9,715 nucleotides of DNA from a virus (Duplodnaviria; Heunggongvirae; Uroviricota; Caudoviricetes). A program made the position numbers and the translations under genes. This document shows, one piece after another, positions 3,320 through 9,715 of the stretch (its first letter is position 1; each line of letters starts with the position of its first letter). The notes beneath the pieces were generated by a model, which saw only the letters and a program-made list of their open reading frames with translations, was not told the origin of the DNA and made no database searches. Location of the stretch: IMG/VR virus record IMGVR_UViG_2713897054_000020. One strand, written 5' to 3'.

Positions 3320-3352
3320 AGTCAGAAATTCCTCTTTGACTTAAAAAATCAC

Positions 3353-3403
3353 AACTGGATGTTCATCCAGTTATGATTATAATCATGATTGCATTTTGCG
3401 CAA
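3353..3403 (-). promoter_or_regulatory. putative promoter and operator of the capsid operon
   Basis: Minus-strand -35 TTGCGC (3403-3398), 16-nt spacer, -10 TATAAT (3381-3376). The -10 lies inside a perfect 14-bp palindrome ATGATTATAATCAT (3373-3386). A perfect 20-bp palindrome AACTGGATG-TT-CATCCAGTT (3353-3372) covers the predicted start site and early leader. Confidence 0.4.
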
Positions 3404-3480
3404 TAAAATTGAGTTATGTTGCAAATTATGAAATGATTTACAGCAACAGTAGTCACCATGCTGTTAACCTCGTAAGCAAA

Positions 3481-3520
3481 AGCCCGATAAGCTTCCTCCT
3501 GTACTTATCGGGCTTTTTTT
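3481..3520 (+). terminator. strong intrinsic terminator, plus-strand oriented and possibly bidirectional
   Basis: Stem AGCCCGATAAG (3481-3491) pairs with CTTATCGGGCT (3504-3514) around a 12-nt loop CTTCCTCCTGTA, followed by a T7 run (3514-3520). On the minus strand it is followed by only UUUUGCUU. Confidence 0.55.
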
Positions 3521-3524
3521 GGGT

Positions 3525-3548
3525 ACAAAAAGCCGGATTTTCTCCGGC
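3525..3548 (-). terminator. rho-independent terminator after ssb
   Basis: Stem GCCGGA (3532-3537) pairs with TCCGGC (3543-3548), with an A-run at 3527-3531 giving a U-tail on the minus strand. Almost identical in sequence to the terminator at 1257-1279. Lies directly after the SSB stop (3557). Confidence 0.6.
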
Positions 3549-3556
3549 CTGTGCGT

Positions 3557-3967
3557 TCAGAACGGAATATCATCACCGTAGGGGTCATCGTCTCCCGCTG
3601 GTGGCTGATTACCCTGTGCGCCTGTGGTTTTGCGTCTGTTCCCGCCAGGACGTGCCGCACGGGCACTGATTACGCTGTCTGCAATAACCTGATAACCCTG
3701 CCGCGTTTCCCCGTTCTGTCCGGTCCACTGGCTTATCTGCATCACGCCAGATATGCTGGCAACGTCGCCTTTTTGATGTTTAGCCAGGAAGTCGGCCTGC
3801 TTACCAAATGCCATCACCGATAGCCATAACGTAGCCGTTCCGTCATCTGCCTGGCTGCACGGAAGGGGGACCGCCATACGAGCCAGCGTCATTGGTGTGC
3901 CCTTGCTGGTCTGTTTTACCTGCGGGTCGTCCACCAGCCGCCCGTAAGCGGCTATCTGTGCCGTCAT
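3557..3967 (-). CDS. ssb: single-stranded DNA-binding protein
   Basis: 136 aa. OB-fold core blocks GRLVDDPQ and WLSVMAFGKQADFLAKHQKGDVASISG parallel E. coli SSB GNLGQDPE and [28 protein letters not shown]. Gly/Pro-rich linker and an acidic C-terminal tail ending DDIPF, as in SSB. The ATG overlaps the upstream stop (ATGA). Confidence 0.85.
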   Translation of the reverse strand: MTAQIAAYGRLVDDPQVKQTSKGTPMTLARMAVPLPCSQADDGTATLWLSVMAFGKQADFLAKHQKGDVASISGVMQISQWTGQNGETRQGYQVIADSVISARAARPGGNRRKTTGAQGNQPPAGDDDPYGDDIPF

Positions 3968-4233
3968 ACTGCCCCCTCTCCGGTTTTAACGTTGATGGTT
4001 GTTACCTGTTCCGCTTCGGCAATCTCCCGTTCTGTCAGCGTGGCAAAGTTTGCCGCTGCTGTGGTCATGAATGCGCTTATCAGGTCGGGATGTTCCTTCG
4101 CGTATCCTTCCCCCGCGTGGCGGTCTATTACCCTGATTGCTACCTTTAAGGCGTGCTCTGTCATGTCTAACGCTTTATATTTTGGCTCTGTTCTGTCTCT
4201 GCGCATTTTGGTTATCTCCTCACTCATGCTCAC
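3964..4233 (-). CDS. hypothetical protein (89 aa) between the origin and ssb
   Basis: ORF translationally coupled to ssb through an ATGA overlap. The start is either GTG at 4233 (SD GAGG 6 nt upstream) or ATG at 4227. No motif recognised. Confidence 0.5.
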   Translation of the reverse strand: MSMSEEITKMRRDRTEPKYKALDMTEHALKVAIRVIDRHAGEGYAKEHPDLISAFMTTAAANFATLTEREIAEAEQVTTINVKTGEGAV

Positions 4234-4420
4234 TTTTGCGCCTCACTTTTTAAAGAGTCTCGCTTCGTCTCACTTGATATTTTTGATGTTTTTATGTGCA
4301 TGTTTCATAAGGATTTTTTTACTCCTCACTTTTTGGGGTATATATACGTTGAAAAGTGAGGAGTTCAGGGGGTTTTTCGTTCAATTACTCATTGTCCTCA
4401 CTTTTGCGCCTCACTTTTTA
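4229..4420. repeat. putative replication origin: iteron array with an AT-rich inverted-repeat core
   Basis: Two perfect 24-bp direct repeats CTCACTTTTGCGCCTCACTTTTTA at 4229-4252 and 4397-4420. The sub-motif CTCACTT(TT) occurs at least six times on the plus strand and once inverted. A 12-bp inverted repeat CTCCTCACTTTT (4322-4333) / AAAAGTGAGGAG (4351-4362) flanks the AT-rich spacer TGGGGTATATATACGTTG. Sits immediately 3' of the replication helicase gene. Confidence 0.6.
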
Positions 4421-5827
4421 CAGAGGGCCTACATCATCACCGTCGATATAAATAACCCCGTCTTTTTCCAGCTTGCGTAGCCAGCGGCTGAAGTTTTTCA
4501 TTTCGTACCCCAGCTTTTTCATATCGTCACGTAACAGCGGGATCGTGCACTTGTCGCCGTGCTGTGTGCGTGACCGGATACATCCCCATAGCGCAGCATG
4601 ATTCTCCGTCTTGTTGCCAGCCTCTTCGATGCGCTCCAGTTCAACGGGAGGACGCGGCTTATCCACCACCACCAGCGACGTGATTAACTCCCCGTCAGCG
4701 TCGGTAAAAAGCTCCACCACCCGCAAATCATAGGCAGCCTCTTTGAGTTCCTCCGCGTCCTTCATTTTGGTGCATGAGATAACCAGCGCTTCGCTTCCTG
4801 CGTCCTCCCTGCGTATCCGGTATTCAGCGTCCAGTGATGCACGAAATGCACTGGAACCACGCGCCCCCTTTGTTTCATCCTTGCCGGAATGGTGAACCAC
4901 CAGCACCGTAGCCCCTGTGCGCCGTTTAAGCTCGTCACAACCACGGATAAATGCCCCCATGTCGCGGGAGTCATTTTCATCATTGCCGCCAAAGCAACGC
5001 GCCAGCGTGTCCAGAATAATCATGCGAACAGGTTTACCCGTTTCCCTCTCCACCTGACTGGCAGCAATAACCAGTTCATCAACATCAAGCGGGACAGCCG
5101 GAAAGATGGGACGGTTTACCAGATACAGATTTTTCACCTGCTCACCGTGCACAACCTCCCAGGCTTTTACACGACGCGGAACGCCGATACCGCCTTCACC
5201 AACCACATAGAGAACAGCGCCATGCGCCACCCTGCGGCCTCCCCACTGGCGGCCCGTGGAAACGTGACACGCCCACGATCCGGCAAGGAATGATTTATAG
5301 GAACCGCTCGCCCCGTATATGCTGCAAAGCGACGATGCCGGAATAATCCCCTTTACCACGTAATCAAGCTGTGTGTCGTATCCGGTAGATCCAACGCTCA
5401 TCGGTAGCGTGGTTTTTCGCTGGGGAATTTTTTTCATGACCAGGCTTTCCCCGCGTTCCCATGCCTCCCTAAGCCGTGGAAGCTGGTCGCTCCATTCCTC
5501 CAGCAATTCGAAATTTTCAGAAAGTAGCCGCGCCTCCTGGACTCCGGCGATCGCCAGTTTCGTGGCGATGGTTAACAGCTGCGGCTCTTCAATATTTCCG
5601 GCGCGTATCACCGTCGCCCTGTATCGCCCATCATCAACAATCTGGAGGTTATCCAGTTCGCTTAACTGATAACGCCCCAGATAAACGGGAGGGACTGGAT
5701 CGCCTGCTTTTTTGGCCTGTGCAATGATGTAATGCTCTGCGAATGAATGAGCATCAATACCCGCAAAAATAATCGCATCGGTGTATTTATCTTTCGGTAA
5801 TAGTTTTACGTTCGGTGCCAGTTTCAT
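4418..5827 (-). CDS. replication initiator/helicase, RepA/DnaB-like RecA-fold ATPase (AAA_25-type)
   Basis: 469 aa. P-loop-like GASGSYKS, Walker B-like VRMIILDTLARCFGG, and a helicase H4-type motif ATVLVVHHSGKD. An N-terminal domain of about 170 aa and a C-terminal domain of about 70 aa are unassigned. SD AGGGGT; the ATG overlaps the upstream stop (ATGA). Confidence 0.85.
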   Translation of the reverse strand: MKLAPNVKLLPKDKYTDAIIFAGIDAHSFAEHYIIAQAKKAGDPVPPVYLGRYQLSELDNLQIVDDGRYRATVIRAGNIEEPQLLTIATKLAIAGVQEARLLSENFELLEEWSDQLPRLREAWERGESLVMKKIPQRKTTLPMSVGSTGYDTQLDYVVKGIIPASSLCSIYGASGSYKSFLAGSWACHVSTGRQWGGRRVAHGAVLYVVGEGGIGVPRRVKAWEVVHGEQVKNLYLVNRPIFPAVPLDVDELVIAASQVERETGKPVRMIILDTLARCFGGNDENDSRDMGAFIRGCDELKRRTGATVLVVHHSGKDETKGARGSSAFRASLDAEYRIRREDAGSEALVISCTKMKDAEELKEAAYDLRVVELFTDADGELITSLVVVDKPRPPVELERIEEAGNKTENHAALWGCIRSRTQHGDKCTIPLLRDDMKKLGYEMKNFSRWLRKLEKDGVIYIDGDDVGPL

Positions 5828-6363: not shown

Positions 6364-6858
6364 TTAATCCCCGTCCGTCGCTTTTCTTAAAATAACCTCT
6401 GTCACGAAATCAGCATAGTTAGCGGCAATATCAAGAATATTTAGCCCTGTATCTCTGTGCTCATCAGTGCAAAGAAAGAAAAAAGCCACCCGCATAATTT
6501 CAGATATTGACGAAAGCGCATCAGCCGCATCATCAGGAACGCCGGAAAATTCCTGTTTCAGGGAATTAAAACGATCATCACGCATAACCCCCCCATTTTC
6601 ACAATCAGCAATCAGGATAGCTTTGGCCTCATTCAGAGCCATATCAGCACTAAGTTGCATAACCGCCAGCGAATGAGGAACGAAAGCCCCTGCATATTCT
6701 GTTTCACTGGTGGCGTGCTTATGCGCCATGTCAGCAATAACAGAAATATCAATCAGCGCGTGCATCAGCGTAGTGAGCGCGGCGGCTGCTGCGTCCGGTG
6801 TGGTTTTATTGTGCATAGGTTTCTCCCTGGCGAATACGGGCGGCAAATACAGCAACAC
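6364..6858 (-). CDS. hypothetical protein (164 aa as drawn; about 150 aa if translation starts at ATG 6816)
   Basis: First gene of the leftward operon. The internal ATG at 6816-6814 has a better SD (AGGGAG, 6-nt spacing) than the first ATG at 6858. Acidic, Ala-rich. No motif recognised. Confidence 0.55.
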   Translation of the reverse strand: MLLYLPPVFAREKPMHNKTTPDAAAAALTTLMHALIDISVIADMAHKHATSETEYAGAFVPHSLAVMQLSADMALNEAKAILIADCENGGVMRDDRFNSLKQEFSGVPDDAADALSSISEIMRVAFFFLCTDEHRDTGLNILDIAANYADFVTEVILRKATDGD

Positions 6859-7095
6859 AACCGGACGGGCAACGGCTACGCGCTTCGCGTTCCGTCCAGG
6901 CGGTTACGTGGATGATTTGAGATTCTCCGGCACTCAGTGCCAGAAAACGCCACACAAAGGCCGTTTGTGTGTGTACAAGGTGTGGTATATGATTTACAGC
7001 AACCATAACGGCTCCTAGTTTACGTTGTTGGTTAGAAGCCCCGTTACTGCTCCTACAGTGCGGGGTTTCGTCGTTTCTACACCTTGCCTTAATAA

Positions 7096-7148
7096 GGTGT
7101 TGAACACCAATTTAAATCGAGGTGTTAAACACGTCAAGTGTTGAACAC
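7096..7148. promoter_or_regulatory. operator array: three copies of a palindromic site GTGTT(G/A)AACAC
   Basis: GTGTTGAACAC at 7097-7107, GTGTTAAACAC at 7122-7132 and GTGTTGAACAC at 7138-7148. The third overlaps a putative plus-strand -35 TTGAAC (7141-7146); a -10 candidate CATACT lies at 7164-7169. The array sits between the divergent leftward operon and the RHH gene. Confidence 0.55.
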
Positions 7149-7198
7149 TTATTTTTTTTCCTGCATACTGCATTTGTTTTTTATGAGGGGTGCTCAAC

Positions 7199-7378
7199 AT
7201 GGCGACAAAAGCAGTAAACGCAAAATCACAAACAGTTGCGGCAAGGGTTCCACATGAAGTTATGAACAATGTTGAGGCGGTAAAAATGCCCGGCGAAAGT
7301 ACAGGGCAGTTTGTTACAGCTGCATTAAAGCGGGAAGTTGAATACCGCCAGCGCCGCAAGACCAAAGAATCAGAATAA
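7199..7378 (+). CDS. small ribbon-helix-helix (Arc/CopG-like) DNA-binding protein, putative repressor
   Basis: ATG at 7199 with SD GAGGGG 8 nt upstream (the track start at 7190 is a GTG inside the SD). The N-terminal pattern QTVAARVPHEVMNNVEA followed by GESTGQFVTAALKREVE fits a beta-strand/helix/helix RHH fold. Lies directly downstream of the operator array. Confidence 0.6.
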   Translation: MATKAVNAKSQTVAARVPHEVMNNVEAVKMPGESTGQFVTAALKREVEYRQRRKTKESE

Positions 7379-7435
7379 TCACCATCAGCGCCGTGGTGTG
7401 AGGAACTCCGGCGCATTGCTTTACAGGAACACACA

Positions 7436-7639
7436 ATGACCAACAAAGAATCAACCAATACACCATCGCAAAAAACGAACAGAGAGCACGAAAATATGGC
7501 GCTCGAGCATGAATCAGAAAGATTCGCACCATGCGCTTTTGTCCTTGATGAGTTTCTAAAAAAATATTCACGTTCTGAACGGATGAAAATGGCAGCACAA
7601 TACGGCCCCAACAAGCAAGATAATTGCCCACCAGCCTGA
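7436..7639 (+). CDS. hypothetical small protein (67 aa), uncertain
   Basis: ORF downstream of the RHH gene on the same strand with a weak AGGAA SD, followed by a plus-strand terminator-like hairpin. Polar, low-complexity N-terminus. Could instead be untranslated. Confidence 0.35.
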   Translation: MTNKESTNTPSQKTNREHENMALEHESERFAPCAFVLDEFLKKYSRSERMKMAAQYGPNKQDNCPPA

Positions 7640-7709
7640 TCGCGGTTATCATGCCCGGGCTTATGATTGTTGACACATACGGCGCAGCGGGTTAATTGTT
7701 CAGAAAGGT

Positions 7710-7735
7710 GGCTCCATTTCGGGGCCGCTTTTTTT
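7710..7735 (+). terminator. putative intrinsic terminator of the RHH operon
   Basis: Stem GGCTCC (7710-7715) pairs with GGGGCC (7721-7726) with one G-U pair, then GC and a T7 run (7729-7735). Confidence 0.4.
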
Positions 7736-7760
7736 ATGTTCATCATTTGCCCTATATATG

Positions 7761-7967
7761 TTAAGCGGTCGTTCCGCGCGCTTTTTGTTCGCGTTCTTTC
7801 ATCCATGCGATTACGTCTTCCTCATACCATCCGCGACGGCGCAAACCGACACGAAAACCCTGCGGGAATTCTCCGGCGTTGATCATGCTTTGCAGCGTGC
7901 TGTCTGCCTTAATGTGGATAAGTTTTTTTACTTCCTGGCGAAAGATGACTTTTTTGATTGCTTCCAT
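7761..7967 (-). CDS. alpA: AlpA-family (excisionase-like HTH) transcriptional regulator
   Basis: 68 aa. SD GAGGT 8 nt upstream of ATG 7967-7965. Sequence block STLQSMINAGEFPQGFRVGLRRRGWYEEDVIAWM follows the AlpA/Xis MerR-like HTH pattern (S.ST, G.FP, G.R, W, DV, W). Confidence 0.8.
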   Translation of the reverse strand: MEAIKKVIFRQEVKKLIHIKADSTLQSMINAGEFPQGFRVGLRRRGWYEEDVIAWMKEREQKARGTTA

Positions 7968-8013: not shown

Positions 8014-8108
8014 GAAATACGGTAAATCATCGGATGCAGGGAAAAACAGTACTCACCGTTTTTAAACGGTATACACAGTTTTTTATATTGATGATTTGAA
8101 AGGGATTT

Positions 8109-8133
8109 ATAAAAAAAGCGGCATTTCTGCCGC
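8109..8133 (-). terminator. rho-independent terminator
   Basis: Stem GCGGCA (8118-8123) pairs with TGCCGC (8128-8133) around loop TTTC, with an A9 run at 8109-8117 giving a U-tail on the minus strand. Lies directly after the stop of the 83-aa ORF (8145). Confidence 0.6.
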
Positions 8134-8144
8134 TTTCAGGATTG

Positions 8145-8473: not shown

Positions 8474-9715
8474 CTAAACGGCTCGGATACCCCTTTTACC
8501 ACTGGCGAGGGTTACGCCCGTCGCCGCAGCCTCGACAAATTCGCCCCACCAGCGCATAAGCACGATGCGTTTTTCTATGTAGTTGCTCCGGTTGTATGCC
8601 CGTCTGACTTCGTTGGTGTCGACGTGGGCAAGTGCGGCCTCTATTACGTCTGGCTCAAAGCCTTCTTCGTTCGCTGCTGTGCTGAATATGGCGCGTAATC
8701 CATGAGACACCAGCACGCCAGCGAATCCCATGCGTCGTAATGCTGCGTTAGCGGTCTGGCTGTTCATCGGCTGCTGTGGGTCTTTCAGACTCGGGAAAAC
8801 ATAATCGCGGTGGTGGCTGATTGGTTTCATAGCCTCCAGCACTGCCATAGCCTGGTCACAAAGCGGGATAACGTGGTCGCGGCGCATCTTCATGCGTCCG
8901 GCGGGTATGGTCCAGCGTTGCGCTTCCATGTCGATTTCTTCCCAGCGTGCCGACGATGCTTCAACGGGACGGGTTACGGTCAGTAACTGCCATTCAATCA
9001 GTAATCTGGTCTGCCGTTCTGTTGCCGATACTGATAAAGCCTGCATAAGCTCCGGCAGCTGTTCGGGGCGGATTGTTGGCATATGTTTTTTTACAGGGGA
9101 GGGGAACGCCTTACGCACATTCATAGCCGGATTGGCATCAATCATCCCACTATTGGCGGCGTAATCCATTACCTCATTTATACGCTGTAAAACTCGCTTG
9201 AGCGTTTCCAGGTTGCCACGTTCCTTGATGGGGGTAAGCACCTCAACGAACCTGCGAGCGGTCAGGGTGTCTATTGGCGTGTTGCCGATGAACGGGAATA
9301 CATATTTTTCCAGCGATCGCCAGATGTCTTTAATCGTATTGGGGGCCAGATTCTGGCTGATTTTCACCTGGTACCATGCTGTTGCCACATTTTCGAACGT
9401 GTTCCCTTGTCTTCGGGCCTCTGTCTCTCTTTTTTGCCTCTCGTGGTCCTGCGGGTCAGTTCCGGCACGAATTAACGCCCTGTACTCGCTACGGCGTTTT
9501 CTGGCATCAGCCAGGGAAACATCATCAAGCGATCCAAAACTCAGCAATATTCTTTTTTTGTCCGATGGTCGGTAGTAGGAAAATCTCCAGAGTTTTGATC
9601 CGGACGGTTTGATCAGGAGAAAAAGCCCTCCGCCGTCCTGTAGGGTGTATTCCTTTTCTGCTGGTCTGGCTGCTTTGATCTGTACTGTGGTTAATGGGGG
9701 TGTTTTTCTCGCCAT
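8474..9715 (-). CDS. int: tyrosine site-specific integrase, P4/CP4-57 family
   Basis: 413 aa. The N-terminal arm-binding region LTTVQIKAARPAEKEYTLQDGGGLFLLIKPSGSKLWRFSYY matches the P4-type integrase pattern (DGGGLYL..KP.GSK.WRF.Y). The C-terminal catalytic region carries HGLRA, HVIPLC and a late RRAYNRSNY segment that probably holds the catalytic Tyr. The ATG is the last three bases of the window, so the promoter and attachment site lie outside it. Confidence 0.9.
   Translation of the reverse strand: MARKTPPLTTVQIKAARPAEKEYTLQDGGGLFLLIKPSGSKLWRFSYYRPSDKKRILLSFGSLDDVSLADARKRRSEYRALIRAGTDPQDHERQKRETEARRQGNTFENVATAWYQVKISQNLAPNTIKDIWRSLEKYVFPFIGNTPIDTLTARRFVEVLTPIKERGNLETLKRVLQRINEVMDYAANSGMIDANPAMNVRKAFPSPVKKHMPTIRPEQLPELMQALSVSATERQTRLLIEWQLLTVTRPVEASSARWEEIDMEAQRWTIPAGRMKMRRDHVIPLCDQAMAVLEAMKPISHHRDYVFPSLKDPQQPMNSQTANAALRRMGFAGVLVSHGLRAIFSTAANEEGFEPDVIEAALAHVDTNEVRRAYNRSNYIEKRIVLMRWWGEFVEAAATGVTLASGKRGIRAV

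Follow-up and report, generated by a model that had tools for sequence, protein, structure and literature searches.

Introduction

Short RNAs made from the strand opposite their target are known from P22 (sar, in the immI region) and from the SymR/SymE pair; they are ~70-80 nt long, end at an intrinsic terminator of their own and cover the ribosome-binding site (RBS) and start codon of the target. Plasmid copy-control antisense RNAs (CopA of plasmid R1, against CopT-tap-repA, and RNAI of the IncB and IncI plasmids) are directed at rep-leader mRNAs. The silencing of Gram-negative phage-inducible islands and the restraint of their toxic early genes are only partly understood: the papers on these islands that we consulted describe activation by AlpA and, for some, C4/CI-type RNAs, and we found in them no antisense RNA at the position considered here. 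That position lies in a 9,715-nt stretch of DNA (the window, analysed at its full length) from IMG/VR virus record IMGVR_UViG_2713897054_000020, which is, because of its encoded gene set (integrase, AlpA-like protein, helicase, SSB and late module), a ~10-kb Escherichia coli phage satellite of the phage-inducible chromosomal island (PICI)-like or P4-like kind.

Satellites of this group carry C4 and isrK RNAs (PMC10111431). In the window, we are moderately confident from sequence comparison that a short segment, here called module B, is a small antisense RNA gene that covers the start of the early replication operon. A first-pass annotation, made from the letters of the window, had noted in module B a 15-mer, a hairpin and a plus-strand promoter, had likened it to a second site (module A) and had suggested that the two share a regulatory input or encode a pair of related small RNAs. 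Its observation is partly confirmed by our analysis, and its interpretation is partly supported.

Results

Plus-strand hairpin in the operon leader

The hairpin of module B lies ~31 nt before the ATG of an Icd-like (host cell division inhibitor-like) gene, icd, in every relative; it occurs in several classes of unrelated sequence, all of which pair. When 28 distinct variants were folded on both strands, the plus-strand fold, antisense to icd, was the more stable in 26 (mean 6.7 kcal/mol). Two alignments were used for the comparison of strands: A1, a MAFFT alignment of 23 E. coli-type variants, and A2, comprising 34 sequences, in which copies from other genera were fitted to R1, a covariance model of the plus-strand segment. 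The stem cells of A1 are paired in 98.3% of cases on the plus strand versus 84.2% on the minus strand, with 42 versus 0 G·U pairs, and five pairs show compensatory changes; the observed values were reached in 0 of 500 shuffles. For A2 the corresponding figures are 96.4% versus 83.7% and 56 versus 0 G·U pairs, with compensatory changes in 9 of 13 pairs and better pairing on the antisense strand in 33 of the 34 sequences. Over both alignments, the plus strand gives the better pairing in 55 of the 57 sequences and the worse pairing in none; the G·U pairs total 98 versus 0. The 10 nt 3′ of the hairpin contain on average 5.3-5.9 T on the plus strand versus 1.1-1.3 on the other strand (5.3 versus 1.1 in the E. 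coli-type set), and the tails of other hairpin variants read TTTGCTTTTTT or GTTGTTTTTTT. Because the pairing favours the plus strand and the T-rich tail lies on the plus side only, we conclude from these comparisons that the hairpin is a conserved plus-strand RNA structure and an intrinsic terminator for a rightward transcript; such a terminator opposite the target gene, with a covarying stem of 13-15 bp and a T-rich tail, is present in 57 distinct copies from more than 10 genera.

This structure had been drawn in the first-pass annotation as a 9-bp stem with a 17-nt loop containing CUCCU, beginning 33 nt after the 15-mer. Both arms were correctly located (GAAGCCCCG, 7035-7043, and CGGGGTTTC, 7061-7069) and CTCCT is indeed found at 7050, but most of the supposed loop is itself paired, leaving a 6-nt loop, and the gap is 31 nt. 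Nor does the module lie upstream of the replication operon, as had been proposed: the operon promoter is to its right on the minus strand, so that the hairpin falls in the 5′ untranslated region (UTR), roughly +33 to +67 of the transcript, and the 15-mer falls within the coding sequence of the first gene (module B as a whole spans about +33 to +110).

A conserved block that continues into the first gene

R1 was searched against loci around RepA-helicase homologues, taking one genome per species, and identified 36 further copies (46-75 bits). Each of these is oriented antisense to its operon, at a distance of 1.1-1.5 kb upstream of the RepA helicase gene; the genera represented are Xenorhabdus, Citrobacter, Pantoea, Kosakonia, Kluyvera, Leclercia, Enterobacter, Rosenbergiella, Superficieibacter and Phytobacter. 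Sequence similar to 6940-7130 is found in 1360 of 5426 complete E. coli genomes. The E. coli matches to this region break recurrently at ~7023, 7041, 7065, 7077 and 7100, so that leader, hairpin and operators behave as mosaic segments that are swapped independently.

Identity among 27 diverse copies is 0.5-0.76 from ~7075 to ~6954 and low across the operator region (7096..7149), in place of which unrelated sequence is found in relatives that still carry the RNA block. From the hairpin the block reaches a further ~75 nt into the gene, as far as the −35 position of the putative antisense promoter (Table 1). The first 14 codons (consensus MADTQHTQTRPKFT) are common, at the nucleotide level, to proteins that otherwise diverge, and they end at +42, the outer edge of this −35. 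By these sequence comparisons, the segment from the tail back to about codon 14 is one conserved block, and the flanking operators and the body of the protein are freely swapped among relatives; its span from the −35 to the terminator tail suggests the extent of a small gene with ~80 transcribed nt. MADTQHTQTRPKFT heads Icd-like proteins in enterobacterial elements (L030, L040 and L002 were also examined at the equivalent position), and in the Xenorhabdus loci (L007, L004, L012 and others; ~3921-3962) the same 14 codons head a primase zinc-ribbon protein (…GKHGACPICGGTDRFHF…).

Within these codons, a −10-like hexamer (TATGAT, TATGCT or TAGACT) is located at +14..+19 of the first open reading frame (ORF), and 31 of the 33 listed homologues from other genera retain its T1, A2 and T6 through codon changes such as His-to-Ser; the two exceptions are L026, which is frameshifted, and L035, in which the start codon was not located. 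The hexamers and 17-nt spacer of the plus-strand promoter that the first-pass annotation had proposed are located as given (Table 1), but this putative promoter matches the consensus at 8 of 12 positions and is not called by a promoter scan.

Segment 6999-7080 folds as two stem-loops (z = −4.3). RNAalifold places a closing stem, GCCA/UGGU, around the 5′ loop that is complementary to the Shine-Dalgarno sequence, and on the plus strand 36 of 37 copies have a G·U pair in it. The predicted RNA is complementary to the icd 5′ UTR, Shine-Dalgarno sequence, start codon and first two to three codons. The icd ATG is at 7006..7004 and its Shine-Dalgarno sequence, AGGAG, at 7016..7012, 5 nt upstream; the complements of both (7012-7016 and 7004-7006) fall within the block 6999-7083, as bounded by the predicted 5′ end. 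Rfam gave no match for the predicted RNA in the whole window, in a permissive scan of 6900-7200 or in 11 related loci.

Table 1. Coordinates of the features discussed, with strand and basis of each assignment.
Feature	Position	Strand	Description or basis
Predicted cis-antisense RNA, ~80 nt	6999..7083	plus	R1 match, 92.8 bits
5′ stem-loop of predicted RNA	7001..7033	plus	loop 7011-7022 with GCUCCUAG, complement of icd Shine-Dalgarno
Terminator hairpin	7035..7069	plus	14-bp stem, one bulge, loop CUCCUA; covariation
U-rich tail UUUCGUCGUUUCUA	7067..7080	plus	interrupted, weakest of the variants
Putative antisense promoter	6965..6993	plus	−35 TTGTGT 6965-6970, 17-nt spacer, −10 TATGAT 6988-6993; inferred
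15-mer copy B	6989..7003	plus/minus	plus: most of putative −10, discriminator, predicted RNA start; minus: icd codons 2-6 (VAVNH)
Icd-like gene, 66 aa	6806..7006	minus	first of leftward replication operon; NCBIfam NF033153 and PGAP annotation of identical locus
Operon promoter	TTGACG (7137..7132)-17-TAAATT (7114..7109)	minus	sole promoter called by scan in region
Three GTGTT(G/A)AACAC palindromes, presumed operators	7096-7108, 7121-7132, 7137-7149		flank and overlap operon promoter
Module A	3431..3525	plus	15-mer 3433-3447; hairpin 3478-3517, stem AAAAGCCCGATAAG, then seven T
SSB	3557-3967	minus	
RepA-family helicase	4418-5827	minus	
YlcI/YnfO small gene	7199-7378		diverges from early operon
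AlpA-like helix-turn-helix protein	7761-7967	minus	
Integrase	8474-9715	minus	

Modules A and B compared

The 15-mer, ATGATTTACAGCAAC, is present in exact copy at 3433-3447 and 6989-7003, as the first-pass annotation had reported. An exact 15-mer direct repeat occurs somewhere in ~5% of first-order Markov random windows, so the repeat by itself is borderline and weak evidence. Relatives were gathered via the Icd-like protein and the 68-aa late protein (160 viral contigs), among which 21 distinct elements contain both the A and the B region. If the two sites formed a functional pair, the 15-mer would be expected in both places in relatives; counted at ≤1 mismatch, both sites have it in 4 of the 21, B alone in 11, A alone in 1 and neither site in 5 (one-sided Fisher p ~0.55 by our own arithmetic on these 21 elements). 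The B copy encodes Icd-like residues 2-6, and among relatives its common variant is a synonymous GCT/GCC change, whereas distant copies have other N-termini (MAGTQH or MAVRQH). The A copy is part of one of two alleles of a ~40-nt segment, and AATCAT alone is common to all. Gene conversion between A and B was considered and rejected, as the GCT/GCC state of B does not follow that of A in the same element. The shorter copy of the core (TACAGCAACA) had been placed at 6866-6875; it is at 6848-6857 and is another V-A-V of the Icd-like protein.

Beyond the 15-mer the modules are not homologous. A position-by-position count gives ~30% identity outside it; R1 scores 9.4 bits on module A (E = 1.4, filters off), and a covariance model of A (R2) finds only module A, with no match to B. 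The distance from the start of the 15-mer to AGCCC is, as had been noted, the same in both, at 48 nt (3433 to 3481 and 6989 to 7037), but the stem ends that had also been matched vary among B variants; neither they nor the CUCCU loop motif is conserved among module B variants and hairpin classes, and the CUCCU loop was therefore rejected as a common functional motif. Placement differs as well, B being inside its operon and A upstream of the −35 of the late promoter. The idea of a paralogous pair with a shared regulatory input is thus unsupported, given both the independent variation of the sites and the lack of homology; for B, the comparative data agree well with the alternative of a plus-strand small RNA that has a promoter and a terminator to itself, but not with that of a related pair. 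We conclude that the 15-mer is without function of its own and that the A/B identity is an isolated, coincidental match.

Module A sits between the replication-operon terminator and the late promoter. The stem is constant across all 30 E. coli-type variants, apart from one substitution each in L201 (giving a plus-strand G·U) and L235 and a truncation of the hairpin in L200; the module also has a conserved CCUCAUAUGC linker. R2 found no homologues in other genera, its matches being confined to E. coli-type elements. The 5′ 40 nt occur as two alleles (…TTTACAGCAACAGTAGTCACCATGCTGTT… and …TTATCCCGATCATGTGTGTCAGTGCACC…), each before an invariant CCUC(A/G)UA(U/A)GCAAAAGCCCGAUAAG…U7, and CCUCGUAA of module A could pair with the ylcI ribosome-binding region UUAUGAGG (7183-7190). 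Module A is laid out like a small RNA gene and may be one in its own right, or it may serve as a terminator in both directions. A 36-aa ORF within it (3349-3459, MVTTVAVNH..., with the same N-terminal words as Icd) was rejected, since other alleles shift the AATCAT frame and encode unrelated short peptides.

Next to module A is the promoter of the late (packaging) operon, TTGCGC-16-TATAAT (3403..3376, minus), which is overlapped by a palindrome at 3347-3378 with 15-bp arms (AATCATAACTGGATG/CATCCAGTTGTGATT) and a core, CTG-N10-CAG, of LexA-box spacing. Relatives keep this palindrome, and L162 has matched changes in both arms (AATCAGGACTGGAT…ATCCAGTCCTGATT). Because the packaging operons of Staphylococcus aureus pathogenicity islands (SaPI) are LexA-controlled, the palindrome may, by analogy, be an SOS-box-like operator.

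The first gene and its surroundings

The Icd-like protein scores 64.6 bits against NCBIfam NF033153 (cut-off 25) over residues 17-60, a domain that leaves out the residues encoded by the 15-mer. A tblastn search of phage genomes with the protein gave a single weak match, which was in neither P1 nor P4. The stop codon of icd overlaps the start of the gene that follows. Within the icd coding sequence there is a terminator-like hairpin on the minus strand at 6942-6971 (CACACAAA-CGGCC-TTTGTGTG, then GCGTTTTCTG), which is invariant across all E. coli-type copies and overlaps the putative antisense −35; judging by its sequence, it could stop the operon transcript if icd were untranslated. An ORF spanning the module B hairpin (7015-7806, minus, 263 aa) was rejected: it has no family match, crosses the promoter and operators and is unannotated in the identical RefSeq locus.

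C4-type RNAs in the window and in relatives

Rfam C4 (RF01695) and isrK (RF01394) gave no match at E up to 1 in the whole window or up to 10 in 6900-7200. As positive controls, the same scans recovered both families in P4 (C4, 74.9 bits; isrK, 60.8 bits) and C4 in L171 (71.5 bits). A search of P4 with R1 found nothing. C4 and isrK would be expected on the same strand as the operon, and the structure described here is specific to the strand opposite the icd operon.

One relative, L171, has two tandem icd-like genes (features at 333-529, 677-764 and 817-986), with an R1 block (75.3 bits) before the first and the Rfam C4 match before the second. A second, partial Icd-like gene is also present in the O157 relative L242. 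On the plus strand at 7050-7061, the window sequence CUCCUACAGUGC shares 11 nt with the C4 recognition loop of L171, UUCCUACAGUGCC (L171 regions compared, ~720-735 and 797-810), and there is complementarity between it and the RBS region, ACUGUAGGAGCC, of the icd copy that is under C4 control in L171. This match may reflect cross-talk between elements or chance.

Other features of the element

Chromosomal loci of E. coli O91 RM7190 and STEC2017-197 are 100% identical to the window, and in STEC2017-197 the locus adjoins tRNA-Pro and yejM; the homologous locus of O157:H7 adjoins roxA. Three small proteins are encoded leftward between the Icd-like gene and the RepA-family helicase, and the late module, on the minus strand, encodes the 68-aa protein, a lambda E-type major capsid protein, a D-type decoration protein and a Nu1-like small terminase. 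In the interval 4229-4425, between the helicase gene and its neighbour, there are three copies of TTTTGCGCCTCACTTTTT (spacing 83-85 nt), a 29-nt repeat 168 nt apart and a 22-nt inverted repeat at 4321-4364; these repeats are probably replication-origin iterons. The Nu1-like gene (538-1080) is flanked by a 59-nt inverted repeat (333-391 and 1181-1239, 86% complementary), which may be an invertible or mobile cassette or a cos-related structure. Transcription units end in similar hairpins (AAAAAGCCGGA(T)TTTCTCCGGC…) at 1250-1283, 3527-3552 and 8104-8137, and these look like reused terminator cassettes.

Discussion

A conserved block on the plus strand, bearing a terminator, heads the replication operon of this satellite and its relatives, and from it we infer the promoter, the transcript and every later step. 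In the reading that we favour, a weak sigma-70 promoter within icd codons 5-14 would start an ~80-nt RNA near 7000. The 5′ stem-loop of such an RNA would display an anti-Shine-Dalgarno sequence, and the RNA would be fully complementary to the leader, RBS, AUG and first codons of the icd-like mRNA, so that pairing would block initiation of icd translation and make the duplex a substrate for RNase III. Reduced icd translation would in turn lower expression of the downstream helicase and SSB through lost coupling and premature termination; downstream expression should drop without icd translation because the icd stop overlaps the next start. The island would then stay quiescent and the toxic Icd-like protein would be kept off, until, after induction, the operon promoter would fire strongly enough to overcome the antisense promoter through convergent transcription and titration. 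On the strength of the sequence, then, the predicted antisense RNA probably keeps the satellite replication operon off.

Several points weigh against this account. The window copy has an interrupted U-tract (UUUCGUCGUUUCU). Fitting to a plus-oriented model makes alignment A2 lean to that strand, although A1 and the raw folds of the 28 variants were not so fitted. The −35 is poor (TTGTGT or TGTAAA, 3 of 6 positions, at +42..+37), and the promoter scan does not flag the site. Conservation of the 14 codons could come partly from protein function or from a recombination junction, and a synonymous-site test of the antisense promoter is powerless in the E. coli-type copies because the icd core is nearly invariant there. 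Finally, the literature on Icd-like proteins, PICI antisense RNA, EcCIEDL933 and C4/icd gave no description of such an RNA.

The evidence is firmest for the terminator features, and these also suit a hairpin that is only an insulator, keeping stray antisense or read-in transcripts out of the operator and ylcI region, with no dedicated promoter and no regulatory RNA; a promoter that is weak by consensus and passed over by the scan also suits this explanation. We nevertheless regard it as rather unlikely, because the conserved block runs ~75 nt past the hairpin to the −35 position, the key −10 bases persist across different codons in nearly all the listed homologues, a conserved 5′ stem-loop presents the anti-Shine-Dalgarno sequence and no plus-strand gene lies upstream that would need termination. 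The hairpin could instead work in the sense (minus) strand, in the icd mRNA leader, as a 5′ stabiliser, a processing site, an attenuator or the target of a C4/CI-type immunity RNA from a co-resident element. It does lie within the operon transcript, in the leader (+33 to +67), and its sense loop, ACUGUAGGAGC, repeats the icd Shine-Dalgarno context, matches the RBS of the second, C4-controlled icd of L171 and is complementary to UCCUACAGUG of that C4; leader RNA sites are used by P4-type satellites (PMC10111431). Yet 14-16% of the sense stem cells would be A·C mismatches and none is G·U, the preference for the opposite strand has no counterexample among the 57 sequences, the sense strand lacks a T-run after the hairpin, the loop motif is limited to one hairpin class and the 11-nt match is near chance level, so that a role in the sense leader seems distinctly unlikely.

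Two further explanations appear to us very improbable, and about equally so. An inverted repeat of this length beside the operator region of a replicating element might act as DNA, whether as a protein-binding palindrome, a cruciform or a single-strand replication initiation signal. However, the stem is replaced wholesale between variants with its pairing kept, which argues against a sequence-specific site, an asymmetry confined to G·T is unexpected for recognition of duplex DNA, and origin-like iterons are found elsewhere, at 4229-4425. The other holds that A and B are paralogous regulatory units upstream of leftward operons, served by one input (a protein on the 15-mer) or encoding two related small RNAs. 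The exact 15-mer at the same 48-nt distance from an AGCCC stem at both sites speaks for it, as does the folding of both plus-strand segments into a 5′ stem-loop followed by a terminator-like hairpin; it is contradicted by the independent variation of the two sites in relatives, the failure of similarity past the 15-mer and of reciprocal covariance-model searches, the synonymous drift of the B 15-mer as coding sequence, the position of B inside an operon and of A upstream of a promoter, and the frequency with which random windows hold such a repeat. An exact repeated 15-mer with a look-alike hairpin was here a coincidence, which suggests caution in reading such pairs.

If module B is a small antisense RNA gene, it would account for the 14 codons common to unrelated first genes, and it would provide a concrete control point at the head of the early operon, in a sequence whose like is found in about one quarter of complete E. 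coli genomes and in many other Enterobacterales. More speculatively, and we think this doubtful as a whole, the antisense cassette could be what chiefly determines quiescence or immunity in a large family of Gram-negative phage satellites, replacing the sense-strand RNA of P4 (CI) and P1 (C4). By this family we mean PICI-like and P4-like elements with a RepA-type helicase or P4-type primase in Escherichia, Xenorhabdus, Citrobacter, Pantoea, Kosakonia, Kluyvera and others. Hairpin classes would then be specificity groups, some acting in trans (e.g., the window loop CUCCUACAGUG on C4-type icd RBSs of co-resident elements).

Among described systems, those closest in design appear, by analogy, to be P22 sar, the SymR-type cis-antisense regulators and the plasmid copy-control RNAs. 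Like sar and SymR, the predicted RNA would have its promoter in or beside the 5′ end of its target, convergent with a strong regulated promoter, and its target would be a harmful or regulatory small protein. However, we found no relationship to them by sequence or covariance model (no Rfam match); the target here is the first gene of a satellite replication operon, the cassette is fused to different downstream proteins across genera and the RNA is predicted from sequence. With the copy-control RNAs it would share the antisense position over a leader and a first small ORF translationally coupled to a replication gene, as well as the arrangement of a pairing stem-loop plus a terminator hairpin, whereas the satellite here is integrated and depends on a helper, and its first ORF is Icd-like rather than a leader peptide. 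In place in the genome and in logic, it resembles P1/P7 C4-icd-ant and P4 CI (seqA/seqC; kil/eta), where the early operon begins with a small ORF (icd or kil) and the downstream genes are controlled by an RNA complementary to the RBS region of that ORF. In contrast to C4 and CI, which are cut from the sense leader and pair by short loops, the RNA predicted here would come from the opposite strand and would be complementary to its target in full.

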